Below are positions 11,880 to 47,790 of a stretch of 64,000 nucleotides of DNA, piece after piece. Source of the DNA: Stegostoma tigrinum (Eukaryota). The notes under the pieces were generated by a model. It ran no database searches. It worked only from the letters and a program-made list of their open reading frames with translations, and had not been told where the DNA came from. The translations under genes and the position numbers were made by a program. The stretch spans positions 35,491,394 through 35,555,393 of the forward strand of contig NC_081365.1 in assembly GCF_030684315.1 (NCBI RefSeq). Direction: 5' to 3'. Within the stretch, counting starts at the first letter, position 1, and the number at the start of each line of letters is the position of its first letter.

Positions 11880-13775
11880 TCATACCCCTACCCAGATGAA
11901 GCTTTGGAAAAATATCAGGACAGTAGGACCAATCTGAAATGAGGAATTCAGAGGGCTAAAAGGGGCCATGAAATATCTTTAGCAAACAGGGTTAAGGAAA
12001 ATCCCAAAGCCTTTTACTCATACATAGGGAGCAAGAGGGTAACTAGAGAAAGGGTTGGTTCACTCAAGGACAAAGGAGGGGAGTTATGCGTGGAGTCAGA
12101 GAAAATGAGTGAGATTCTTAATGAGTACTTTGCATCAGTATTCACTGAGGAGAGGGACATGACGGATGTTGAGGTTAGGGATAGATGTTTTATTACTCTA
12201 GGTCAAGACAGCATAAGGAGGGGTAAGTGTTGGGTATCCTAAAAGGCATTAGAGTGGACAAGTCTCCAGGTCTGGATGGGATCTATCCCAGGTTTCTGAG
12301 GGAAGCGAGAAAGGAAATAGCCGGGGCCTTAACAGATATCTTTGCAGCATCCTTGAACACGGTGAGGTCCCAGAGAATTGGAGAATTGCTAATGTCTCCT
12401 TGTTTAGCCAGGATAATCCAGGTAATTATAGACCGGTGAGCCTGACGTCAGTGGTGGGGAAGCCGTTGGAGAAGATACTGAGGGATAGGATCTATTTACA
12501 TTTGGAAGAAAATGGGCTTATTCGTGATAGACAACGTGATTTTTGGGAAGGTCATGTCTTACCAACTTGACAGAATTCTTTGCGGAAGTGACAAAGTTGA
12601 TAGATAAGGGAAGGGTTGTGAATGTCATATACACGGACTTCAGTAAGGCATTTGATAAGGTTCCTCGTGGCAGGCTGAAGGAGAAAGTGAAGACACGTGG
12701 GGTCCAGGGTGTGCTAGCTAGATGTGTCGAGAACTGGCTGGGCAACAGGAGACAGAGTTGTAGTGGGAGGGAGTTTCTCAAAATGGAGAACTGTGACCAG
12801 TGGTGTTCCACAGGGATCTGTGTTGGGACCACTGTAGTTTGTGATATACATAAATGATCTGGAGGAAGGTACAGATGGTCTGATTAGCAAGTTTGCAGAT
12901 GACACCAAGATCGGTGGAGCAGCAGATAGTAAAGAGGGCTGTTGGAGAATGCAGCAGAATATAGATGAGAGAATTGGGTGGAGAAATGGCAGATGGAGTT
13001 CAATCCAAGTAAATGCGAGGTGATGTATTTTGGAAGATCCAATTCAAGAGCGAACTATATGGTAAATGGAAAAGCCCTGGGGGAATATTCATGCACAGAG
13101 AGATCTGGGTGTTCAGGTCCATTGTACCCTGAGGGTGGCAATGCAGGTGGATAGAATGATCAAGAAGGCATACGGCATGCTTTCATTCATCGAACAGGGT
13201 ATTAAGTACAAGAGTTGGAAGGTCACGTTACAGTTGTATACGACTTTGGTTCAACCACATTTGGAATACTGTGTACAGTTCTGGTCGCCACATTACCAAA
13301 GAATGTTGATGCTTTGGAGAGGGTGCAGAGGAGGTTCACCAGGATGTTGCCTGGTGTGGAGGGCGCTAGCTATGAAGACCGGTTGAGTAGATTAAGATTA
13401 TTTATGTTAGAAAGATGGAGGTTGAGGGGGGGACCTGATTGAGGTCTGCAAAATCATGAGAGGTATAGACAGGGTGGATAGCAAAAAGCTTTTTCCAAGA
13501 GTGGGGGACGCAATGACTAGGGGTCATGATTTCAAGTGAGAGGGATAAGTTTACGGGAGATATGCGTGGAAAGTTCTTTATGCAGAGGGTGGTAGGTGCC
13601 TGAAACGTGTTGCCAGTAGAGGTGGTAGAGGCAGCACGACAGCGACATTTAAGAATAGGCAGGGAGCAGATGGATACAGATCCTTGGAGAATAGGCAACA
13701 GCTTAGATAGAGGACCTGGATCATTGCAGGCTTGGAGGGCTGAAGGGCCTGTTCCTGTGCTGTAATTTTCTTTGT
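11880..13775 (+). mobile_element. CR1/HER1 LINE, 5'-truncated, frameshifted RT
   Basis: ORF fragments KSPGLDGIYPR, GRSCLTNLTEFF, DFSKAFDKVP, KFADDTK, PHLEYCVQFWSP, followed by the CR1 3' tail GGGCCTGTTCCTGTGCTGT. Confidence 0.93.
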
Positions 13776-13779
13776 TCTT

Positions 13780-13935
13780 TGTTTTCACCCATCTAACCTG
13801 AACACTCAGAGGAAACACATGCAAACATGGGGACAATATGTAAACTTCACACAGATAGTTGTCTGAGGGTGGAATTGAACCCAATTCCCTGGCAATGTCA
13901 GGCAATAGTGCTAACCACTGAGCCATCTGGCCACC
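13780..13935 (-). mobile_element. V-SINE (HE1-like) fragment
   Basis: Minus strand carries the tRNA head TGGCTCAGTGGTTAGCAC..GGGTTCAATTCC and a partial V core. Confidence 0.75.
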
Positions 13936-14470
13936 TAAGGGCACAGGGAAATCAAAAGCAAAAGATGTCCAGGAAAAGGCATTAGATGTAATTTGTTCTG
14001 AAATAATATTTATTAACTTTAATATTACTTTGAATATTATCTTATGGCACAAAGTACAAACTCCTTATGTGGCATCCTCTTACAGTTCTGTGAGGTAGGT
14101 TGACTGATATTTAAATATCTTTCTAGTCAGGTGAAAGTTATTTTATGGCTGTTTATTTGAATGTGATGTAAGACTGAATCATCAGGTATCAGCATTTTGC
14201 ACTAAATCATTGAGCTTCAGTTAATAAAATTCTTACCAACTGTTAAACAACATATACTACACTATCTATAGTGTTTTGGAAATATTCAATATTCTGGTAA
14301 TATTCAGTACAATATTCATGCGAATTAATGAATGTATTCCACCAAGTGGTGGTGTATTTTTTCCCAAAAATTCACCAAACTCCTTTAGTTCGCTCACTTT
14401 ATGAATTATGAAATACTAATTAGAATTCACAATTTCTGGTGAGAATTCCCAAATGGAACAGCAGCCGTAC

Positions 14471-14829: not shown

Positions 14830-15757
14830 TAAAGAATTAGTTTGTTTTTAGTTTGGTCCAATGACCTCAATATAATTTAAGGTAAACTAAAGATAATCTC
14901 ACAGATGCTTCATTCATAATATTTTCAGTGAAATTTTATAATGGCCACTCACCAACTACATTTATTTTGCTGCTCATAAATGGAGAGGAGGAAAACATGG
15001 AAACCAATGGTAGTATGAAAGGAGGGGAAAAGTATGCAATAAGGAAGATAAAGCACTTAGAAAGAAATGGCAGTAGAAATGTTTCATAACAGGAGAAGCT
15101 AGTGATGAAAGAATTAAATGAATACCATTTACACATGAGGTTTCAGTGAATAATGTATTAAAAGACTAAATCAAAGGCAAAGTAATTTTCATATAAATAT
15201 TGTACAACTTGTCAGATTTAATGAGGATTTGTAACTGAGAAAAATAATAATTCATGATAAATAATGACATTAAATTGTTGGTAGCATAATGATTTAAAAA
15301 TTATCTTGTGATGTTTGATTGTAGCTCCAATTTGCGGCAGCTTGGAGTAGTGGTCCACTGGGTCATGTGAGTTCCTCATACTGTTGAATTCATGATGTAA
15401 ATTATGCTGCGGGGACAAGTTAAACAGAGATCAGGAGTTGCCAGAACCAGAGGTAGGCAAAGATTGTGTAAAAGATTTAAGGAAGGAATTGAAAGAGTAT
15501 GAACGGCAAAATCACTATTGCCATTAGAGAGAGAACTGAGAAAAAAAAAGATGTCTTGACCCATTGTCCCTGATTTCCTACACATCTGATTTGTAATGTC
15601 AGGAGATTTAAACGGAATGAGAAAAATGGGAACAATTACCTGAAAATATAGAATACAGGCGTATATCTTACATTTAACTTTTTACAATATCAAGTGGAAG
15701 AAATTAGAAAATTACAGCAGCGAATCAAGTGCACTACTTACAATACATGGAAGTTAC

Positions 15758-16118
15758 CTTAGGGTCATAATGTGTCCATTAGCACAGAAGCAGGCCAGGC
15801 AGATGCTGTTGCACATAGTTACAACATCAGCTCGTAATACAAAAGAAGTCTCTGTAATATTGTGTATGTAAAGACAGCTTTGAGAAGGGAGAGAATAGAC
15901 TTTAGCCTGTTTCTCTGAGCAGAGCACTACATACTGGTGATCCCCTATGTCCTGAGAGGAAGATGGTGAAAATATTACGAGTTTTCTTTTCCGTCCTTTA
16001 TCATCTTTATCTTCATTGTTTGGATCTTTCCACACTTCATATGGAGGGTGTATTAAACCACCCAGAGAGTCCAAGAATGAAAATGTTAGCAGGGCTCCTT
16101 TCAACATTAACACTGTTC
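15758..16118 (-). CDS. STXBP5L: STXBP5L coding exon
   Basis: tttcag|GA..AG|gtaact, 361 nt, phase 1 to 2. (G)TVLMLKGALLTFSFLD..QDIGDHQYVVLCSEKQAKVYSLPSQ..CLACFCANGHIMTL. Confidence 0.97.
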
Positions 16119-16761
16119 CTGAAAAAGAAATAAAATAAACCTATATGTATTACTTAGGAGCACAATTATCTCTAGTGTTTCGACAATATGAACATATTAA
16201 CTTTCAAATCCAATAACACTTTGATAAGCTAATTTCAAACAAATGTTCTATTGTTACATGTATATCAAATGGAATATGGACAATGCTGTAGATTGTCTAA
16301 ATTTTAACTGTGCTTGTGTAAAAGACTCAGGTTTATCCTTCACAAAGATGTTGCCAAATTCAGTTCCTCACATACGTACATACATACATATATTCCTGAT
16401 CAAAAGCTATTTGCAGTTACAGACTTTTTTCTTTTCTTGAAAACTGTGTGTATGTAACTGAGTGATAAATATACACTGAAATAATAAATATGGTTCTTCA
16501 GTAAATCTTGCACTGCAGTAAGCTTCTGAGACACTTTTTCTGCATGGACTATTCTTTACAGATTGGCACAATTCCACCAAGAGACTGCTTTCTCTATTTT
16601 AATATTTAAGGGCTTGGATAAGAAATCACTCAGTCTACTATGACAATTTTAACAATACTACATGCAAGTTATTTTTTGTTGTTGTGTAGTAGGATATTGT
16701 CAAACTTGCCCAAAATGCATTTTACCATAATGAGACATTGGCAGTACAAAGAAAATCTTAC

Positions 16762-16998
16762 CACTGGGAGAGACCATAAGTGGTTCTGAATATCTTTGTT
16801 CCTCTGGAGGTAGGTTCAAGTTGATGACTAACACTGTACCCAAACTGGTACCAACCCAAAGGCTCGGTGAGAGGGTAGAATCCATCTTTCGGCTGTAGGA
16901 CTCCATAAAGTACAGAGCAGTTATAGCCTCCTTTGATTCTTTGTCAATGCTAGAGACACTGGAACTTCGGGACCGGTTAAAAGAATTTTCTTTACTTT
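16762..16998 (-). CDS. STXBP5L: STXBP5L coding exon
   Basis: ttgcag|AA..AGTG|gtaaga, 237 nt, phase 1 to 1. (E)SKENSFNRSRSSSVSSIDKESKEAITALYFMES..SPSLWVGTSLG..EPLMVSPS. Confidence 0.97.
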
Positions 16999-18974
16999 CT
17001 GCAATAAAATCAATGAACAATAAAATCACTTGAGATAAAGGAATAATTGAAAAGGTGGCTTACACGGTACTTCTACATATTAATATTAATAACTAATGTA
17101 AGGTTTGATGAGCATAAACCTCCAGAATGTGTAATGCATCGTAACTCAGATTCCTGAATTGTTTGTTAGTTACATTCATTGCCATTAGACAATAAGAACA
17201 TAAGAAATGAGCAGGAGTCGGTCCCCTCTAGCCTGATCCACCATTCAATAAGATAATAGATGATCTGGGTGTAGGATATACTTCTCAGACACATTTGGAT
17301 TTCGACACATTTGGATTTCAACACACTCACAAGCAAATTTTCAATGAGCTGTGCAGCCTAAATTATTTTATCAATGTTCAGCTGACCACTAAGTAGAGAC
17401 TCCATAAATACCCATGAAGTGTTCAGAATTTGCTTTATCCTGCCATGTGTGCACCAGAACTAATTGTGATAGCATTATGAAGAAATCAATGACGTACACT
17501 CTCTTTTCACCTTCCAACTAAAACTGCTACATGGGGATACAACACGAGCAAAAGTAAGGGAAAGTAGATAGAAAAATAAATTTAATGCCCACAAGACTCA
17601 TTTTGTGGTTTTTGGTTTAAAAAGACTATCTAATGGGTTTCTTGTTAAAACGCAATGCTTGAAAAAGAATCCTAAAATGTCCTTTTGTCTTGTTATAGTA
17701 GCATTGTGTCTTGGCTTTCAAATTAACACAGTGAATTAATCAAACAATGGTTGAAAACATCATTAATGCAACACTGCATTGTGAATTAAGGCTGACAGAA
17801 TTAAAAATGTTAAGTAGTTTGAATTTAGGCATTATTTATCTGTTCACAGAGACCCGAGTTTGCTCTCAATTGAGCATTTTCATTTAGAGTCTGGTTTGCC
17901 ATCAAGAAAATCCCAACTTTGCATTAAGGTTCAGCGGCTACTTTCAGTCAAAGACTCCTATTATATTGGGGAACTCCAAGGCATTCCTGTCCCCACACTG
18001 CTTTTCCATGCTTCTACGGGACAAAGCAATGGCCCGTTGCTCACGTAACAAATTATGGGGCAATACTTCATATCCTGTTATCTGGCAAACAGTGACTTAA
18101 ACATAAATTTTCAAAAGAATTAAAATTTGAAGCTGAGAAGATACTGAGGGGAAAAATAGCCCTAGTTATCTGGAGAAGGAATAAGCTAATGTTTTGCAGC
18201 ATCTGAACTGATACAAGTCTCAGCACTTCTCTGGTTTAGAGTCTAGATGGGTTAGAAAGTTTTGGGATGTTTCAATCTCTGACAATCTTATTGATTTCTC
18301 TTACCATAATGGTGACATTAGTGGCAATCATTGGTGTGGAGGCATAAATGCTATAATAACTTAAAGGACCATATCCAGTTTAAACATCAGCATTAAAGGG
18401 TTCTGCCTAAGCTACACTGTTCTGCTGTTACAAAGAGCAAAATGCTGGTTTTGTCACTCATATTCATTGAATGCTATAAAGTTGTTATATTTGCAGGTAC
18501 AAACTAAATTTACTCCAGAAAGTGAAACCTTATTACAGGTATAAGGACATAATAATTAAATTACTGCTAATCAATCTCTCTGGCACAGTAAAACATATGT
18601 GGATCTCATTTAAGTATTAATTGGAAATTGGAAAAATTACATTTTACTATGATAAAGGCACTATATAAATGCAAGTTATTATTAGGGAGATGCAGTTAAT
18701 TTCTGTCAGTTCAGTTTCAGATTCCTTTTTGCTTCCACTATGACATTATCGGAATCTGAACCCAGGAAAATGCAGTGCAAAAATATTAAAAGCTTAAATA
18801 TTCGTGAACAAGTCTAATTACTAGCATATGCCATTAGAAGCTCTGCTACAACAACAGCTGGAACTTCTACAATGTGTTTGGAAAATGCTGTGGTTAAATG
18901 ATTATATTGTGCATTTAACTTTTAATTCCAGGATAACAGGCCTATTAACAAATCTTGGATATGGCTGAAAAAAG

Positions 18975-19240
18975 ACCCTTGTAAAAGTTTTTTGTCTTGC
19001 ATTCATCAGGACAACCCTTGAGATTTAAAGTAAAAGAAAACAAAATTTTATATTGTATGAGAAAAGTGTGCTGATCAGTGACAAGTGGATTCTGATTTGT
19101 AGAGGTATTGTCTTGGAGAAAGCATTAGTAAACAAGGACTGCCAGTTAACTGTCGAGCTTGTTTTAAATTTTAAACCAGGAAAATTGATTCTAATTGGTC
19201 AAGACATTGCCCTGAGAAATGGACTAGAATGGCTGTCATC
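18975..19240 (-). mobile_element. Probable third PLE-terminus family with decayed hammerhead and promoter-like boxes
   Basis: Minus strand TTGTC-CTGATGA-ATGCAAGAC-AAAA-AACTTTT-ACAAG, preceded by TATA-like and CCAAT-like words. A related diverged copy lies on + at about 22150-22400. Confidence 0.5.
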
Positions 19241-19749
19241 TATTGAATTGAAACAGGTGCAGTGTGTTTAAGTTAACTCTGTTGCCAAAGAATTGCAGGG
19301 GTTGTCTGGGACAGCGGTAGTGACCCCTCCCTTCAAAACACGAGATCAGAAAACATCTGCAAAAAATAGGGTCATGTGGAGTAATATACATAGCTTCCAG
19401 TATTGCAAGTATGTCCTGAGCTTTGCCAGTGTTGGCTGCATGAGTACAGTCAGTACCTTACTTATAAGCAACTGAAGGTATCTGTTCTTTAATATAATTT
19501 GCCAATTTTTGGGACATATGACCCAGGACCTGTATATCTAGCATCATATCAGCACTGAAATTCATATACCATGATATCTATTTCTGTGATAGGTAAAATA
19601 TCTCTTTGGTTTGAATGAGATATTCTGTTTGTGGTGAATATCACTCATGTTGCCATTGTATAGCAACAGTGAGAAACAGTTAGTTTCATCTGTTGCTCAA
19701 ATTTTTGGGATACTTTTAACTTTCCAGGATAACATCTTTTGTCCCTACT

Positions 19750-20185
19750 TCCAAAATGGCGACAGAGTCGGAAGGAGGCAATAGCTGGTGGTCTGGAGTA
19801 GGGTCTTTGGCTGTCACCCAGTGTGCCTGGGCAGAACTCTGGCAGTTGACAGTGGATTCTTCGAGGTCTGGATTGTGGAAGCAGCTGGGGGCTCGGAACT
19901 GTACCAGGACAAGACTCTAGCAGTCTGCAGCCAGGCAGCTGGTGAGCCTGGATGGCAGTTGTCAGCAAGGGAGGGGGAAAGAGATTGATCCCTTGTTGGG
20001 AAAGCCCACTGTTGACCATGGCTAAAGAAGCACCATAATTTTGAAACTTCTAACTTTATTTATTTATTTTTCTACTTTGTACCTAAGATGGCACTGCAAA
20101 TGGCAACATTACAAATCTTTCACTGTACTCCTGTATCCTTGTACTCCAATACACATGACAAAGAAATAAGCTAATTCTAATCTCA
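19750..20185 (+). mobile_element. SINE-like repeat with LINE-type tail (unclassified)
   Basis: GC-richer body starting CCAAAATGGCG. The 3' end TTTTCACTGTACTC..CACATGACAA..AATAA..ATTCTAATCT resembles L2/Rex1-type tails. Confidence 0.4.
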
Positions 20186-20539
20186 TGTATATACTGGGCA
20201 CTTTATCACCAAAAGCGATGACCTTAGAAACGTTTGTGAATTTGCTCAATATACAAAAATAAATGATCAAATCATGGTAGCCCCATTATCCTAAAGGATG
20301 GTTTTAACATTTAGCTTGCACTGTGAACAATGGCTTAACCTGTATTTATGAAGTCACCAGTCTTCTAGTTCGTAGAACTATAGGGATTCCAATGTGTATT
20401 TTGGCCAGTGAATGTTGTTTTGCAGGAGACAGCAGTAGCAAACCACCTGGCCAATTTCTCAATTACACTAGGAGAGGAAGCACATTTGATTGCACCATTT
20501 CAAAGGTAAATTCGAGTGCAGAATGGGGCTCATTAAGAC

Positions 20540-20878
20540 ATAGAATCATTAAATCCCTAGAGTGTGCAAGCAGGCTATTTGGCCCATTAAGTTCACACTG
20601 ACTGTCTGAACAGCATCCCATCCTAACTCTGTAACCTGTATTTTGCAAGGTTAATCTGCCTAGCCTGCACATCCCTGGAACTATGGGCAATTTAGCATGG
20701 CCAATTCACTTAACCTGCATATCTTTGAACTGTGAGAGAAACTGCAGCACCTGGAAGAATACCACACAGTCACGGGGAGAATGTGCAAACTCCACGTAGA
20801 TAGTTGCCCGAGGGTGGAATCAAACCTAGGTCCCTGGGTCTGTGAGGCAGCATGCTAACCATTGAGCCATCATGCCAC
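20540..20878 (-). mobile_element. V-SINE (HE1-like)
   Basis: Reverse-complement homolog of 1236-1541, with tRNA head at about 20810-20878, V core and tail. Confidence 0.85.
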
Positions 20879-22606
20879 ATGCAGGGAAATTCTTGCATGT
20901 AGTTGCAGATTCAAATATAGTAAATGTATCATTTATATACTTTAAATATGGAAGGGGTAGAAGATCAGGTGTCATTCCATTGAATACACATGATGAAAAT
21001 ACATAAATGTTTTGGGATTATGCAGTTAGGTTGGGGAAAAAAGGAAGATATTAAATTTCAAACACTTTCTGCACTAAAATTGATCTATTGCTATTAATTG
21101 CTGGGAACTGTTCTTTGGAAGAGACTATAGGGCCTCTTTTCTGATGGTTACCTAACAACCCCCACTGGATTTAACACCTGCTTCAAACATTGTGGAGAAT
21201 TGGGAAAAAAAATGAGAAGTAGCAACAGGAAACAGTAAGGCTGCCAGAATTGCATGCATTTCCCCCTGTTTGAAGTTATTGGGTACCTGATAAAGTTTAC
21301 TCATCACAGTATTTTGTCTACCTAGTAGACTCTTAGAAGCTGATCTGTGGCCACTTTATTACGACTTGGAAACAGCTTCATTTCCAACCAAACTGAAGCT
21401 TTCTTGGAAAATTTCCCATTGGTACATGACTGATAGTACTTAGATTTTGTCAAAAAGAAGCTTGGTGGACTGTAAGAATTCATCAACCCTTTTCTTCTCT
21501 GAAGAGAGCATCCCAACCTGAAACGTCAATTTTCCTGCTCCTCTGATGGTGCCTGGTCTGCTGTGTTCCTCCCAGTTCTATAAATATGTTATCAACCTAT
21601 TATCTTTAGTTCACAGATACTGATTAGTGAGGGTCTCTTTACTTTTGTTCTCTTTTTAAAATATCGTCTGTTCAGAGCTGTTGTTGTCCTGTTTGTTTGT
21701 TTTGGATTAAAAGGGGATATAGTTTTAATTTTGGACTAAGATAATGAACCAGTTTTTCTATTTGTTTAAGAATACGTTTAGTGTTAAAATAAACTGATTA
21801 TTTTGAATTTACTTAAGTTTCTTATTCTGAAAAGCAGTTTCAAAGGGAAACAATTGACCATTTTGGTGATAGAATTTACACATTTAGGCTGATAGGCTTA
21901 ATTATCAACCAATTCCTCCCATCATGTTTCTAATGGGACCCAACAAAGAGATTTGCAAGAGTTGGGCTGAGCGGGGATCCCATGGTAACTCCATCCATTG
22001 GGGCATACACAGTCTTTAAACTGAACTCAACTGTGTGAGTTGTTGAGTTCATAAGTTTAATGAATACTAATTCATACAATAGGTAATGTCTCTAGATCAT
22101 CACTAAAAGAACATACACGCATATTCTATATCCATGCAACAAAATGTGACAGCTGTTCTCTGGTTCATTTTTCTTAGGGTTATTCTTTGACTAATCAGAG
22201 TCAGCTTGCTTCATATAAATTTAAACAAAGCTTGACAGTTGATCGTCAATGTCATTAACTTGTGCATCCTCAAAAGGCAATGCTTCTGTCAGTCAATTTG
22301 CCAACCAATCAGCATTCTCATATAATGTAAACACTACCTTCCCTTTTACTTTGGTAGTTTTTATGAATTGCCCTTATTGAGAAATGTCATTTTTCAGCAT
22401 CACTGGAATTCTGTACTATCAAACAACTGCATTTTTGGATATTGTGTGGTGTGATTTATTAGTTCTAATGCACTGGATTGCACCATCAATATGTTATCAA
22501 AATTTCCAAATTTCAAAGTTCCAATCTGAAAAATTTAATGTTTATCCCTTAAGTTCATTAATCACAGGTCAATCATTCATCACTTACTGATGAAACTTAG
22601 TCTTAC

Positions 22607-22705
22607 CTTTTTCGCTCCATGAAAATGAGGAAGCATGATGCTCATCGTGAGAGAAAATACTGATGCCATGCAATTGCTGAAGCATTGCCCGTCTGGAAGT
22701 GTGGC
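22607..22705 (-). CDS. STXBP5L: Candidate STXBP5L cassette exon (99 nt, or 102 nt using the upstream NAGNAG acceptor)
   Basis: gggacag/tag|GC..AAAG|gtaaga, phase 1 to 1, matching both flanking exons. Open frame GHTSRRAMLQQLHGISIFSHDEHHASSFSWSEK. Five UGCAUG motifs lie in or upstream of it. Confidence 0.65.
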
Positions 22706-24597
22706 CTACTGTCCCAAAAGGCATGCAAAAGGGACATTCATTATACAGCAATCAGTCAAAGCAAACTGCCTACAAATAAATTTGCTGGCATGCAAATTCC
22801 ATCACAATCAAGAAATACACTCAGGCATTGGATGGAAATGTAAACTGTTTTAAGCTTGACTGATGAAAATGTGACATTGGTGCTTCCAGAGCATGCAGAA
22901 CAAATTGTCTTGCAGCAACCCCTGTCACATTTTAATAATCAGACTAACTTAGCCTGATCTCTGCTTACCATTGCTTAGAATAATGTGCAGACATGCACAA
23001 TTAATATGTTTACTTTAGAAGCAAGTAACTGATATCATCAGTATGGATACTAATGCTGAGTAAGTAACTTCATTTTTCTTAAGAGTGCAATTTTGGCTCT
23101 TTTTTATTAACTTTGACAAACATAATTGCACGTAATATCTTAATGTAGTAGTTTCAATGATTTTTCATAGTAAAGATTTTATTTGGATATTTTAATTTGA
23201 GTAAATTTTAATAAGTTCCATCTTGTTTTTGGCAACAATGTGATGAGGTAGCTTTATCGTTATGTTACTAGTCTAGAAGTTCAGAGGGCTCAAGTGCTAT
23301 AAAGGCATGCATTAAAATACCACCACAGCAGTTTTGAAAATTAAATTCAATGAATGGAAATAAATTTGGAATGCAAAGCTAGCATCAATAATGCTGTCTA
23401 TGGAATTACTAGTCCTTCAGAGGAAGAAAATCTATGCTCCTTATCTAGTCTCTTACATGTGACGCCTGACGTACAGCCATATAGTTGACTCTTAAATTTT
23501 CCTCTGAAATGAAACAAAGGACCATAGGAAACAAGAGCAGGTTGAGACTGTTTCACCCAACGTGCCTACTGTGCCGTTTTATGATGGCTGAGTCATCTAC
23601 CATTAAGCCAATTTCTTCCATTCCCATAATCGTCAGTGTTTAGTGTCCACAAACCTGTTGATTTCTTTTATAAAGATATTCAATGATACAGTTTCTATTG
23701 GCCCTATCCTCTAAGTGAAAACATTCCTTCACTTTGCACCCTCTTCACTGCTTCTCTATCCATTTTGATATGGAGAGAAGAACTTAGGACAGTATACCAA
23801 CTGTGCTTTAGCTAAGATTCAATGCAAGATTAAATAAACCTGTTCCAGTTAGGCGGGGAGAGGTTTTGGTGTTTGCAGGGCATAAAGTATTGGGAAAGGA
23901 CACCTGAATTAGCATCTTGACCTCTTCAAGCCCTCATCTGGCTAGCCCCATAATGGACTCAGGTTCCAGTAGGGAGTCCCTTTTGGTCTGGTGGGAAACC
24001 AATCCAGGTGATTTGGGGCAATTAAAAGTTTTTAAAAGAATTTAAAACAATTAAATCTGAACCATTCTTTCTCAACATGTTATCCATACCTTATATCATG
24101 TTGTGACCTCAAGAAGGACAGTGAAGGGGGCAGATGTACAGAAGAACTTCATCGGTGGAGCTGAAAAGGCTTCAACTGCAAAGCGTTCATCAGTTACACC
24201 AAAAGTCTTCAGTCATGCACTGAGAGATTGTTGTACAGACCGTGTTTCTTTTTTCTGTTTTTGTAAGTGCTTTTACTACTTCATAAGTGATTGCCAACCT
24301 CTTGGTAGGTAGTTTAACTGGTGAGCACGTTTATTCAGGAGCACTTTCCTGCTGCCAGTGTTTGCCTTGCCTGGAAACAGTTTATGCAGCTCTAACTTCC
24401 TCTTTGACTGAGGGCCAAAAACAGAAGCCACTCCATCATTAACAGCTACAGCAGCTGGATCAGCAGCAGTCTCAGCCGCCTTTTCAATTGCATGCCCGTC
24501 CATAGTCTAGAAAGAATGGTCATTGAGATCCAGCTGGAAGGAGATAAGATTCACAACGCTGGCAAAGGAGCAGCTCTCTGTTTGTCTGAGCCCATTG

Positions 24598-28061: not shown

Positions 28062-30325
28062 ATTTCAACTTTCCAAACTGGGAACACTATAGTTCGAGTA
28101 CTATAGATGGATCAGTTTTTGTCCAGTGTGTGCAGGAGGGCTTCCTGACACAGTATGTAGATAGGCCAACAAGGGGCGAAGCCACATTAGATTTGGTACT
28201 GGGTAATGAGCCTGGCCAGGTGTTAGATTTGGAAGTAGGTGAGCACTTTGGTGATAGCGATCACAATACTGTTATGTTTACTTTAGTGACGGAAAGGGAT
28301 AGGTGTATACCACTGGGCAAGAGTTATAGCTGGGGGAAAGGCAATTACGATGGGATTAGTCAAGATTTAGGGACCATAGGATGGAGAATGAAACTGCAGG
28401 GGATGGGCACATTAGAAATGTGGAGCCTATTCAAGGAAAAGCTCCTGTGTGTCCAAGATAAGTATGTACCTGTCAGGCAGGGAGGAAGCTGTAGAGCGTG
28501 GGAGCCGTGGTTTACGAAGGAAGTGGAATCTCTGGTCAAGAGGAAGAAGGCGGTTTATGTTAGGATGAGATGTGAAAGCTCAGTTAGGGCGCTTGAGGGC
28601 TATGAGGTAGCCAGGAAAGACCTAAAGAGAGGAGATAGGGGAAGCACTAAATGAATATTTTTCGACAGTATGTACTCTAGAAAATGACAATGTTGTCGAG
28701 GAGAATACCGAGATACAGACTACTAGACGAGGTGGGATTGAGGTTCACAAGGAAGAGGTATTAGAAATCCTACAGAGGGTGATGATAGATTAGTCTCCTG
28801 GGCCGGATGGGATTTATCCTAGGATCCTCTGGGAAGTCAGGGAGGAGATTGCTGAGCCTTTGGCATTGATCTTTAACTCGTCACTGTCTACAGGAATAGT
28901 GCCAGATGACTGGAGGATAGCAAATGTGGTTCCCCTGTTCAAGAAGGGGAGTAGAGACAACCCTGGTAACTATAGGCCAGTGAGCCTTACCTCAGTTGCT
29001 GGTAAAGTGTTGGAAAAGGTTATAAGGGATAGGATTTATAATCATCTAGAAAAGAATAAATTGATTAGGGATAGTCAGCACGGTTTTGTGAAGGGTAGGT
29101 CGTGCCTCACAAACCTTATTGAGTTCTTTGAGAAGGTGACCAAACAGGTAGATGAGAGTAATGTGGTGTATATGGATTTCAGCAAGGCGTTCGATAAGGT
29201 TCCCCACAGTAGGCTATTGTACAAAATGGGGAGGAATGGGATTGTGGGAGATATAGCAGTTTGGATCGGAAATTGGGTTGCTGAAAGAAGACAGAGGGTG
29301 GTAGTTGATGGGAAATGTTCATCCTGGAGACCAGTTACTAATGGTGTACCGCAAGGGTCAGTGTTGGGTCCACTGCTGTTTGTCATTTTTATAAATGACC
29401 TGGATAAGGGCGTAGAAGGATGGGTTAATAAATTTGCAGACGACACTAAGGTCGGTGGAGTTGTGGATAGTGACGAAGGATGCTGTAGGTTGCAGACAGT
29501 CATAGATAAGCTGCAGAGCTGGGCTGAGAGGTGGCAAATGGAGTTTAATGCACACAAGTGTGAAGTGATGCTCTTTGGTAGGAGTAACCGGAAGGCAAAG
29601 TACTGGGCTAATGGTAAGATTCTTGGTAGTGTAGATGAGCAGAGAGATCTCGGTGTCCATGTACACAGATCCTTGAAAGTTGCCACCCAGGTTGACAGGG
29701 CTGTTAAGAAGGCATACAGTGTTTTAGCTTTTATTAATAGAGGGATCGAGTTCCAGAACCAAGAGGTTATGCTGCAGCTGTACAAAACTCTGGTGCGGCC
29801 GCACTTGGAGTATTGTGTACAGTTCTGGTCACTGCATTATAAGAAGGATGTGGAAGCTTTGGAAAGGGTGCAGAGGAAATTTACTAGGATGTTGCCTGGT
29901 ATGGAGGGGAGGTCTTACGAGGAAAGGCTGAGGGTCTTGAGGCTGTTTTTATTAGAGAGAAGGTTGAGAGGTGACTTAATTGAGACATAGAAAATAATCA
30001 GAGGGTTAGATAGGGTGGATAGGGAGAGCCTTTTTCCTAGGATGGTGATGGCGAGCACGAGGGGGCATAGCTTTAAATTGAGGTTGTGAAAGATATAGGA
30101 CAGATGTCAGAGGTAGTTTCTTTACTCAGAGAGTAGTAAGGGTATGGAATGCTTTGCCTGCGACGGTAGTAGATTCGCCAACTTTAGGTACATTTAAGTC
30201 ATCATTGGACAAGCATATGGACATACATGGAATAGTGTAGGTTAAATGGGCTTCAGATCGGTATGACAGGTTGGCACAACATGGAGGGCCGAAGGGCCTG
30301 TACTGTGCTGTAATGTTCTATATGT
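28062..30325 (+). mobile_element. CR1/HER1 LINE, 5'-truncated, with long open RT
   Basis: ORF 28031-28654 (EN C-terminus: LDLVLGNE..FGDSDHN) and ORF 28860-29990 (376 aa RT: NYRPVSLTS, DFSKAFDKV, GVPQGSVLGP, FADD). 3' tail GGGCCTGTACTGTGCTGTAATGTTCTAT. Confidence 0.96.
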
Positions 30326-41876: not shown

Positions 41877-43814
41877 TTATAGATGGCGGAAGTGTTGGAG
41901 GATGATGCGTTGTATCCGGAGGTTGGTAGGGTGGTTTGTGAGAACGAGGGGGATCCTCTTAGGGCGGTTGTGGCGGGGGCGGGGTGTGAGGGATGTGTTG
42001 CGGGAAATACGGGAGACGCGGTCAAGGGCGTTCTCGATCACTGTGGGGGGAAAGTTGCGGTCCTTAAAGAACTTGGACATCTGGGATGTGCGGGAGTGGA
42101 ATGTCTTATCGTGGGAGCAGATGCGGCGGAGGCGGAGGAATTGGGAATAGGGAATGGAATTTTTGCAGTAGGGTGGGTGGGAGGAGGTGTATTCTAGGTA
42201 GCTGTGGGAGTCGGTGGGCTTGAAATGGACATCAGTTACAAGCTGGTTGCCTGAGATGGAGACTGAGAGGTCCAGGAAGGTGAGGGATGTGCTGGAGATG
42301 GCCCAGGTGAACTGAAGGTTGGGGTGGAAGGTGTTGGTGAAGTGGATGAACTGTTTGAGCTCCTCTGGGGAGCAAGAGGCGGCGCCGATACAGTCATCAA
42401 TGTACCGGAGGAAGAGGTGGGGTTTGGGGCCTGTGTAGGTGCGGAAGAGGGACTGTTCCACGTAACCTACAAAGAGGCAGGCATAGCTGGGGCCCATGCG
42501 GGTGCCCATGGCCACCCCCTTAGTCTGTAGGAAGTGGGAGGAATTGAAAGAGAAGTTGTTGAGGGTGAGGACGAGTTCAGCTAGGCGGATGAGAGTGTCG
42601 GTGGAGGGGGACTGGTCGGGCCTGCGGGACAGGAAGAAGCGGAGGGCCTTGAGGCCATCTGCATGCGGAATGCAGGTGTATAGGGACTGGACGTCCATGG
42701 TGAATATGAGGTGTTGGGGGCCAGGGAATTGGAAGTCCTGGAGGAGGTGGAGGGCGTGGGTGGTGTCACGGACGTAGGTGGGGAGTTCCTGGACCAAAGG
42801 GGAGAAAATGGAGTCCAGATAGGTGGAGATGAGTTCGGTGGGGCAGGAGCAGGCTGAGACGATGGGTTGACCAGGGCAGGCAGGTTTGTGGATTTTGGGA
42901 AGGAGATAGAAACGGGCCGTGTGGGGTTGGGGAACAATGAGGTTGGAGGCTGTGGGTGGGAGGTCCCCTGACGTGATGAGGTCGTGAATGGTGTTGGAGA
43001 TGATGGTTTGGTGCTCCGGTGTGGGGTCATGATCGAGGGGGCGGTAGGAGGTGGTGTCGGAGAGTTGGCGTCTGGCCTCGGCGATGTAGAGGTCAGTGCG
43101 CCATACTACCACTGCGCCACCCTTGTCTGCGGGTTTGATGGTGAGGTTGGGGTTGGAGCGGAGGGAGCGGAGGGCTGCCCGTTCTGCGGGGGAGAGGTTG
43201 GAGTGGGTGAGAGGGGTGGAGAGGTTGAGGCGGTTAATGTCTCGACGGCAGTTGGAGATGAAGAGGTCGATGGAGGGTAGGAGGCCTGGGGGTGGTGTCC
43301 AGGAGGAGGACTTGTGTTGGAAGCGGGTGAAGGGGTCAGTGGAAGGACGGTTAGGTTCCCCGTTGAAGAAGTAGGCGTGGAGGCGAAGACGGCGGAAAAA
43401 CTGCTCTATGTCCAACCGTGACAGGTATTCGTTGATGTGTGGTTGTAGGGGGACAAAGGTGAGCCCCTTACTAAGGACTGACCGTTCGTCCTCAGTCAGT
43501 GGGAGGTCTGGGGGGATGGTGAAGATGCGGCAGGGTTCAGTGTGGCTGTCTTCTCTGGGGTTGCTGGCTGTGGAGGTTGTGGGCGGAGCGATGAAGTCGT
43601 CGGCCGTGGGCGGGGTTCCGTCGGCCGTGGGCGGTGTTCCGCCGGCGGTTGGAGTATCGGGGTGGGCGGCAGCAGCTGCGGTGAGGGTGGTGTGTGAGGT
43701 GTTGTACCTGGAAGTGGAGGTGGTGACTGCAGCAGCGGTTCCGGAAGTTCTGTGGCCGGCGGAGGCGGATGTGACGTCATCCGTGGGGTCTCGGGCCGTG
43801 TCCTCATGGTCCAT
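41877..43814 (-). CDS. PLE reverse transcriptase ORF (645 aa, ended by a premature stop)
   Basis: PLE RT motifs: LSKGLTFVP, IKPADKGGAVVV, FYLLPKIHK, MDVQSLYT, QTKGVAMGT..P, RYIDD, LTFLD, KPTDSHSYL. The frame continues past TAA 41877 and TGA 41745 to FTCTS at about 41644. Confidence 0.93.
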   Translation of the reverse strand: MDHEDTARDPTDDVTSASAGHRTSGTAAAVTTSTSRYNTSHTTLTAAAAAHPDTPTAGGTPPTADGTPPTADDFIAPPTTSTASNPREDSHTEPCRIFTIPPDLPLTEDERSVLSKGLTFVPLQPHINEYLSRLDIEQFFRRLRLHAYFFNGEPNRPSTDPFTRFQHKSSSWTPPPGLLPSIDLFISNCRRDINRLNLSTPLTHSNLSPAERAALRSLRSNPNLTIKPADKGGAVVVWRTDLYIAEARRQLSDTTSYRPLDHDPTPEHQTIISNTIHDLITSGDLPPTASNLIVPQPHTARFYLLPKIHKPACPGQPIVSACSCPTELISTYLDSIFSPLVQELPTYVRDTTHALHLLQDFQFPGPQHLIFTMDVQSLYTCIPHADGLKALRFFLSRRPDQSPSTDTLIRLAELVLTLNNFSFNSSHFLQTKGVAMGTRMGPSYACLFVGYVEQSLFRTYTGPKPHLFLRYIDDCIGAASCSPEELKQFIHFTNTFHPNLQFTWAISSTSLTFLDLSVSISGNQLVTDVHFKPTDSHSYLEYTSSHPPYCKNSIPYSQFLRLRRICSHDKTFHSRTSQMSKFFKDRNFPPTVIENALDRVSRISRNTSLTPRPRHNRPKRIPLVLTNHPTNLRIQRIILQHFRHL

Positions 43815-43860
43815 GGTGGCGGGTGCATGGTGGGGGAGGGGCAGGGACAGAGTTGGGATT

Positions 43861-44297
43861 CATCTGCCAATGTGGTATACTGCATCCACTGTACCCGGTG
43901 TGGCTTCCTCCACATTGGGGAAACCAAGCGGAGGCTTGGAGACCGCTTTGCAGAACACCTCCGCTCAGTTCGCAACAAACAACTGCACCTCCCAGTCGCA
44001 AACCATTTCCACTCCCCCTCCCATTCTCTAGATGACATGTCCATCATGGGCCTCCTGCAGTGCCACAATGATGCCACCCAAAGGTTGCAGGAACAGCAAC
44101 TCATATTCCGCCTGGGAACCCTGCAGCCTAATGGTATCAATGTGGACTTCACCAGTTTCAAAATCTCCCCTTCCCCCACTGCATCCCTAAACCAGCCCAG
44201 TTCGTCCCCTCCCCCCACTGCACCACACAACCAGCCCAGCTCTTCCCCCCCACCCACTGCATCCCAATACCAGTCCAACCTGTCTCTGCCTCCCTAA
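43861..44297 (+). CDS. PLE GIY-YIG endonuclease domain (inverted relative to RT)
   Basis: SANVVYCIHCTRCGFLHIGETKRRLGDRFAEH..PVANHF..EQQLIFRLGTLQPNGIN, a PLE GIY-YIG with the CCHH motif. Confidence 0.9.
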
Positions 44298-44521
44298 CCG
44301 GTTCTTCCTCTCACCCATCCCTTCCTCCCACCCCAAGCCGCACCCCCATCTACCTACTAACCTCATCCCACCTCCTTGACCTGTCCGTCTTCCCTGGACT
44401 GACCTATCCCCTCCCTACCTCCCCACCTATACTCTCTCCACCTATCTTCTTTACTCTCCATCTTCGGTCCGCCTCCCCCTCTCTCCCTATTTATTCCAGT
44501 TCCCTCTCCCCATCCCCCTCT

Positions 44522-47580: not shown

Positions 47581-47616
<36 letters not shown>
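47581..47616. repeat. (AC)18 microsatellite, i.e. (UG)18 in the pre-mRNA, starting at the 5' splice site
   Basis: Direct reading. Preceded by alternating purine-pyrimidine GTGCGCGCGTGCGCGC. Confidence 0.97.
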
Positions 47617-47618
<2 letters not shown>

Positions 47619-47790
47619 TCTGTATGGGTGACAGGCAATGAGATTTCCATGCAGGCTGCTGATTGTGCTTTTCGAAATGGCGGTCGGCCTGGTCCTCGAC
47701 GATTCAGCTTTGAAGTATCAGCGATGGAAAGACGCTTCCCAGTGTTGCAGGGTTGGGAAATAGGACTTGTGCAAACTCCATTGACATGAT
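47617..47790 (-). CDS. STXBP5L: STXBP5L coding exon, hypervariable region
   Basis: tttcag|AT..GAAG|gtgtgt, 174 nt, phase 1 to 1. (D)HVNGVCTSPISQPCNTGKRLSIADTSKLNRRGPGRPPFRKAQSAACMEISLPVTHTE, matching the tomosyn-2-specific segment. Confidence 0.95.

Follow-up and report, generated by a model that had tools for sequence, protein, structure and literature searches.

The tomosyn-2 gene (STXBP5L) of Stegostoma tigrinum almost certainly contains a further exon of 99 or 102 nt in its variable linker region, and this exon is very probably alternatively spliced. As judged from sequence comparison, it is ancestral to jawed vertebrates rather than specific to sharks. By analogy with known exons, we consider it reasonably likely that this ancient, frame-keeping optional exon is repressed by RBFOX via upstream and exonic UGCAUG motifs. 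The exon is already contained in NCBI predicted proteins, yet it is uncharacterised: the STXBP5L isoform models hold the same exon at the same place, but they are automatic and come without an account of its regulation, motif or history.

Position, splice sites and splicing of the exon

The window, i.e. the whole stretch of 64,000 nucleotides analysed, was subjected to tblastn with a shark STXBP5L protein, which recovered seven exons in order on the minus strand, the cassette exon among them at 100%. All features described here lie on this strand and are numbered by their position in the window. In its 99-nt form, produced with the TAG acceptor, the exon spans 22607..22705 and encodes GHTSRRAMLQQLHGISIFSHDEHHASSFSWSEK, whereas the 102-nt form, produced with the CAG acceptor, spans 22607..22708 and encodes (V)GHTSRRAMLQQLHGISIFSHDEHHASSFSWSEK, with an extra Val. 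The tandem CAG-TAG acceptor (22706..22711; minus-strand letters ...GGGACAGTAG) has two AGs 3 nt apart, as in NAGNAG acceptors, and is backed by the sequence, by protein models with and without Val and, probably, by the contig ends discussed below. The 5' splice site GTAAGA (22601..22606) directly follows AAG, and reading across the exon gives ...tcccttttgcatgccttttgggacagtag GCCACACTT...GAAAAAG gtaaga. The exon is of phase 1-1, and the frame is kept with 99 as well as with 102 nt. Candidate branch points, near -48 and -44, were identified by consensus match only at 22751..22759, in TTGAC (at -51) and CTGAT (at -47); AG is absent from -59 up to the CAG acceptor, and the pyrimidine tract is modest (13/20).

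The open exon with its phase, donor and tandem acceptor had been proposed in the initial annotation, and each of these elements was re-read in the sequence. Its location between the THTE and ESKENS exons also stood, while the measures were slightly corrected: the upstream exon (174 nt) spans 47617..47790, and the introns flanking the cassette exon measure 24.9 kb upstream and 5,608 nt downstream. This upstream exon is the orthologue of the 171-nt mouse exon regulated by SLM2 and Sam68, and the downstream exon (ESKENS..., 237 nt) lies at 16762..16998. The surrounding DNA is non-repetitive, as had been claimed: the exon with its upstream DNA has one match in the genome, and no tandem repeat was detected over 22607-22997; only short two-copy chance repeats occur. 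A second copy of the exon peptide was not found in the genome (best other match E=5), and therefore no paralogous tomosyn-1 exon was seen. Elsewhere in the window, long frames and a skewed composition at 41880-44300, 28400-30300 and 12000-14060 are typical of intronic retroelement and microsatellite remnants.

Contigs from four public runs, presumed to be RNA and derived from relatives of S. tigrinum, were aligned to 15700-23400; in the run search, no run was RNA by its record, and 14 of 18 rows were guessed to be RNA. The junction 22607-16998, which had been put forward earlier as one of those to look for, was present in contigs from three of the four runs, originating from three studies and two organisms. 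It crosses 5,608 nt with exact GT..AG ends (CT..AC in the order 16998-22607) and connects the additional tomosyn-2 exon to the next exon, and the same spliced contigs run on across the next intron. All three spliced contigs include the exon; the stretch aligned stops short of the upstream exon, so that a skip junction lies outside the view. Run X4 had no joint at the exon, and its uncovered part there is no evidence. In run X1 an unspliced contig begins at 22681, whereas the spliced one reaches 22710, and the overlap of 30 nt would fit branching after an AG shared with the upstream exon, i.e. use of CAG. The contig of run X7, which stems from a different organism, aligns to 22712 and continues for eight further letters, as would be expected if an exon ending in ACAGAAG were joined at TAG. 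High-copy repeats at 20580-20860 and about 21565 attracted very many contigs (from all four runs or from two).

That the exon is an artefact of annotation, or an open stretch that has splice-like ends by chance, has a negligible probability: the NCBI records are predicted models and the runs only presumed RNA, but this reading is refuted by the exact GT..AG joint in three of four runs, continuous with the next spliced joint, and by a peptide conserved from sharks to platypus.

The four named mouse isoforms are combinations of a 72-nt and a 171-nt exon. According to the available text of PMC3188574, PMC3636136 and PMC5397175, the hypervariable exons of mouse tomosyn-2 comprise the 72-nt and 171-nt exons (xb, b, m and s isoforms) and a 93-nt exon upstream, and in the available parts of PMC5397175 and PMC3636136 the 171-nt exon is described as repressed by SLM2/T-STAR and Sam68. 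The shark exon resembles these frame-keeping cassettes of the same linker in the same gene, but it differs in its position, which is downstream of the 171-nt exon, in its length and sequence, and in being enriched in UGCAUG rather than UWAA. It is neither the 171-nt exon, which is its upstream neighbour, nor the 72-nt exon, the sequence of which differs (PMC3636136 supplement), nor the 93-nt exon, which is described as upstream in the available text of PMC5397175. The mouse 72-nt exon itself has a GCAUG just before its acceptor, an exonic UGCAUG and a GCAUG downstream (PMC3636136 supplement), a layout resembling that of the shark cassette exon. No description of the exon was found in the open-access literature, in which the peptide core as query was also without match, and it is undescribed in the available portions of PMC5199341, PMC7409371, PMC3636136, PMC5397175, PMC3188574, PMC13232099, PMC2777236, PMC7349279, PMC13343711, PMC10984984, PMC10066595 and PMC4494069.

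Several further features were observed around the neighbouring exons. UG tracts are of the type bound by TDP-43 or CELF, and the donor of the 174-nt exon runs directly into 18 GT repeats (47581-47616, minus strand); the same exon holds a UGCAUG at 47648 that is common to the mouse exon. Shark models (P0002, P0009, P0013) contain further optional linker segments of about 17 and about 30 residues, a Gly-Lys addition and an ETLCMRG-type segment. These do not map inside the window, which places the intron before the 174-nt exon at more than 16 kb. Turkey records (P0106, P0114, P0115) carry a further insert of 37 residues between the 171-nt exon and the cassette exon, which had no tblastn match in the 64-kb window and may be a gene-model artefact.

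Occurrence and conservation in jawed vertebrates

When the open frame of the exon was used as query, all five candidate proteins were shark STXBP5L models. The peptide of the window is identical to S. tigrinum XP_059506261.1, which has the Val, and among the models of Scyliorhinus canicula XP_038657863.1 is without Val and XP_038657864.1 skips the exon; echidna XP_038613515.1 includes it. A search with the linker region yielded 976 proteins, and the exon was present in all of the best 120 of these 976. The carriers among these 120 are sharks, bichir, sturgeons, gar, bowfin, many teleosts and lungfish and, among tetrapods, frogs, a salamander, a caecilian, turtles, birds and echidna, and a platypus record with the exon was found among the cluster members. 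Therians, squamates and crocodilians do not occur among the 120 of 976 matches listed. The initial annotation had called the isoform possibly lineage-restricted or ancestral; because the exon is carried by models from sharks through platypus, the ancestral alternative is supported, and restriction to sharks is contradicted by models that span every major group of jawed vertebrates encountered other than therians, squamates and crocodilians. Sharks and bony fish split about 450 million years ago.

Among 260 STXBP5L records fetched, the exon is present in 200 and skipped in 58, and two are without the region; since the query favoured records with the exon, the ratio is no inclusion level. Models that include and models that skip the exon exist together in 15 of the 26 tabulated species, two catsharks among them (annotation only), which bears out the cassette claim. 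Use of both AGs of the tandem acceptor may likewise be reflected in annotation, as forms with and without Val exist together in 10 of the 26 species, none of them a shark; both acceptor forms are modelled in lungfish, teleosts, turtles, birds and platypus. The exon is contained in 16 of 19 shark records (seven with Val), and none of the seven carpet-shark records skips it. One lamprey model and one gecko model are without the exon, and single models prove little.

At conserved NAGNAG acceptors, the choice between two AGs spaced by three bases decides whether one residue is added. The shark exon is alike in that one residue (Val) is added or omitted, whereas frogs differ by an extra pair: their records (P0040, P0069 and others; Xenopus) start with Ala-Val-Gly or Val-Gly, which suggests a putative third acceptor 3 nt further upstream. 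Among the cyprinid records seen only the short form occurs, and salmonids have Gly-Gly.

The core of the exon peptide, SRRAMLQQLHG, was exact in 183 of the 200 exon-bearing records, and its 11 residues were 100% identical in all 15 exon-bearing aligned relatives. In the same alignment the mean identity was 77%, 74% and 75% for three neighbouring exons and 51% for the tail of the exon. Eleven of the 200 records read Phe-His-Gly, and an exonic UGCAUG is therefore impossible there at that place.

Low divergence of an exon together with its flanking intron is the pattern of a regulated exon. In run X1, two constitutive exons differed at 44 of 598 letters but the cassette exon at only 2 of 104 (P=0.015). 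One contig of run X1, compared with synonymous sites, delimits a conserved upstream intron block (22709..23081) with four UGCAUG sites inside. Over 22681-23081 this contig has 26 other letters and 3 gaps, so that at most 26 of the 373 letters of the block (at most 7%) are changed versus a pS of at least 0.21 at synonymous sites, a bound computed from 38 of the 44 listed differences. Synonymous sites changed roughly three times as often as letters of the intron block, a comparison that concerns one organism and the block rather than the motifs, with an end chosen by the aligner that favours high identity. A bird-type genomic frame (P0291) has Asn-Ala-Cys just upstream of the acceptor, which may be compatible with a UGCAUG near -14 and is a hint only. 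A Pfam family for the exon frame and an Rfam match at E 0.1 were not found, and RNA folding gave z=-1.91, a value matched by 2 of 100 shuffled sequences, from which no structured RNA is claimed.

For mammals, loss of the exon in therians is marginally favoured. Loss in placental mammals is suggested by the squirrel and tarsier models (both of the two named placentals), which join the flanking exons directly, in line with the direct join that the initial annotation had given for human STXBP5L. The design of a mouse brain RT-PCR spanning the region fits this as well: in the available part of the PMC3636136 supplement, its primers sit in the exon that precedes the 171-nt exon and in the downstream exon, and only 165 and 336 nt are expected as products; as far as the accessible text of PMC3636136 goes, that screen dropped assays with <75% of product at the expected sizes. 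Counting against loss, squamates and crocodilians are also absent among the 120 of 976 matches listed, 90% clusters conceal isoforms behind one representative, and the available texts contain an extra '+93' agarose band (PMC5397175) and 'mutually exclusive e23/e24' (PMC10066595), both unmapped. Skipping in mammal brain would also be what RBFOX repression gives. A mouse retina table (PMC4991804) holds, in its available part, at least two Stxbp5l events of 141 and 72 nt, which is weak evidence. A search with the echidna exon for therian relatives retrieved only the echidna itself among three candidates, and this search was insensitive, as it missed known bird and turtle carriers.

UGCAUG motifs and candidate control by RBFOX

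The five UGCAUG motifs reported in the initial annotation at 22667, 22722, 22789, 22892 and 22992 were all found, and a sixth at 23306 was added. With offsets counted from the CAG acceptor, the exonic motif lies at +37..+42 of the 102-nt exon (22667..22672), where it overlaps the Leu-His-Gly codons. Upstream, one motif is situated within the pyrimidine tract at -19..-14 (22722..22727), followed by motifs at -86..-81 (22789..22794), -189..-184 (22892..22897) and -289..-284 (22992..22997) and, beyond the span first described, at -603..-598 (23306..23311). The transcribed strand of the whole window contains 30 UGCAUG, and five within 326 nt correspond to a scan P=4e-4 (20,000 uniform placements of 30 sites). 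Four motifs were counted in the 300 nt upstream of the exon versus 0.14 expected, none was detected in the 300 nt downstream, and no hexamer in the region is more strongly enriched than TGCATG. With four motifs upstream, one in the exon and none downstream, the layout expected of an RBFOX-repressed exon is present.

According to the available text of PMC2777236, RBFOX represses through upstream and exonic UGCAUG, as in F1-gamma exon 9, calcitonin exon 4 and CaV1.2 exon 9*; in calcitonin exon 4 a site at -34 blocks SF1 at the branch point and one at +45 blocks U2AF65. The shark exon is similar to these three in having UGCAUG near the branch point and pyrimidine tract together with one exonic copy, several copies upstream and none just downstream, but their repression was proven by minigene and binding assays, while the likeness of the shark exon is one of layout and its statistics. 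In the proposed mechanism, RBFOX bound at -19, a site flanked by the candidate branch point and the acceptor, would hinder loading of SF1 and U2AF65, and RBFOX at the exonic +37 site would block a second step, as described for calcitonin exon 4 (-34/+45). The sites at -86, -189 and -289 (three or four further sites) may add avidity and strength, and the strong donor would oppose repression. RBFOX-rich cells would then skip the exon more and other cells include it more, with a repression that is presumably incomplete in sharks. In transcripts that include the exon, scanning would reach CAG first and add Val, with TAG competing.

Counting against RBFOX repression, the exon is included in 16 of 19 shark records and in each of the three spliced contigs, and the 11 of 200 records with Phe-His-Gly have no room for the exonic site. 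RBFOX is abundant in brain and STXBP5L is brain-expressed in mouse; as the shark models and contigs nevertheless include the exon, strong neuronal silencing in sharks is doubtful. The data from zebrafish Rbfox heart mutants (PMC9534849), without a stxbp5l row across nine supplement files, were uninformative.

The strongest competing explanation, which we regard as rather unlikely, takes the exon as real and alternative and lets other factors dominate, or lets the exon be near-constitutive in sharks, so that UGCAUG would fine-tune its use; in variants of it, UGCAUG would act with other proteins or shift the choice between CAG and TAG. Both the inclusion in 16 of 19 shark records and the absence of skipping from the seven carpet-shark records speak for it, and the exonic UGCAUG may be a by-product of the Leu-His-Gly codons, being impossible in 11 records. 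The neighbouring mouse exon, moreover, is under SLM2/Sam68 rather than RBFOX in the published text available. However, TGCATG ranks first among the hexamers of the region, whereas neither MBNL-type YGCY upstream (7 vs 3.4, P=0.06) nor UWAA downstream (8 vs 4.4, P=0.08) is clearly enriched, and two catsharks have skip models.

It is improbable that the cluster serves as a distal RBFOX enhancer of the upstream 174-nt exon via RNA looping, with its adjacency to the cassette exon being incidental. Sites downstream of the 174-nt exon would be on the activating side for RBFOX, as far as the available text of PMC2777236 goes, and the mouse counterpart of that exon is alternative (PMC5397175, in the part available), but the distance is about 24.6 kb, one UGCAUG falls within the pyrimidine tract and another within the cassette exon itself, and the 174-nt exon has nearer sites of its own at 47648 and 47399.

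Possible consequences for tomosyn-2

Tomosyn-2 acts as a brake on vesicle release in neurons, motor endplates and islets. Its variable linker is the known site of isoform control, on which work has been done with mouse isoforms. The exon adds 33 or 34 residues to this linker. In a predicted quail structure, a model that is weak overall (mean pLDDT 55.6, pTM 0.44), residues 689-813 have pLDDT <50 and are flanked by confident strands, and the exon corresponds to residues 759-791; the insert would thus sit in a loop without confident structure. No solved structure covering the linker was found. An amphipathic helix in the exon was not established, as the peak of the hydrophobic moment was modest (0.48) and the model contains no helix. 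Ser-x-Arg is a PKC-type site. An invariant stretch within a predicted unstructured loop suggests a short binding or phosphorylation motif, and the core, Ser-Arg-Arg followed by a hydrophobic-patterned stretch, may be such a motif. It would tune tomosyn-2 and not its syntaxin-binding end; all four mouse tomosyn-2 isoforms bind syntaxin (PMC3188574, in the text available).

The surprise is limited, as each part belongs to a familiar kind and automatic annotation already contains the exon. The exon matters for zebrafish, Xenopus or chick as models, and the invariance of a motif in an exon that is optional suggests a partner or modification that mouse work would miss, if the exon is gone or rare there. 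If RBFOX acts on the exon, two splicing systems, SLM2/Sam68 and RBFOX, would operate on adjacent exons of one linker. Only tentatively do we propose the full scenario, in which an RBFOX-operated switch with an invariant 11-residue motif and a tandem acceptor was kept for about 450 million years and therians dropped the exon after the monotreme split. If this is true, fish, frog and bird synapses would have a tomosyn-2 interaction or phospho-switch that is missing from mouse and human.
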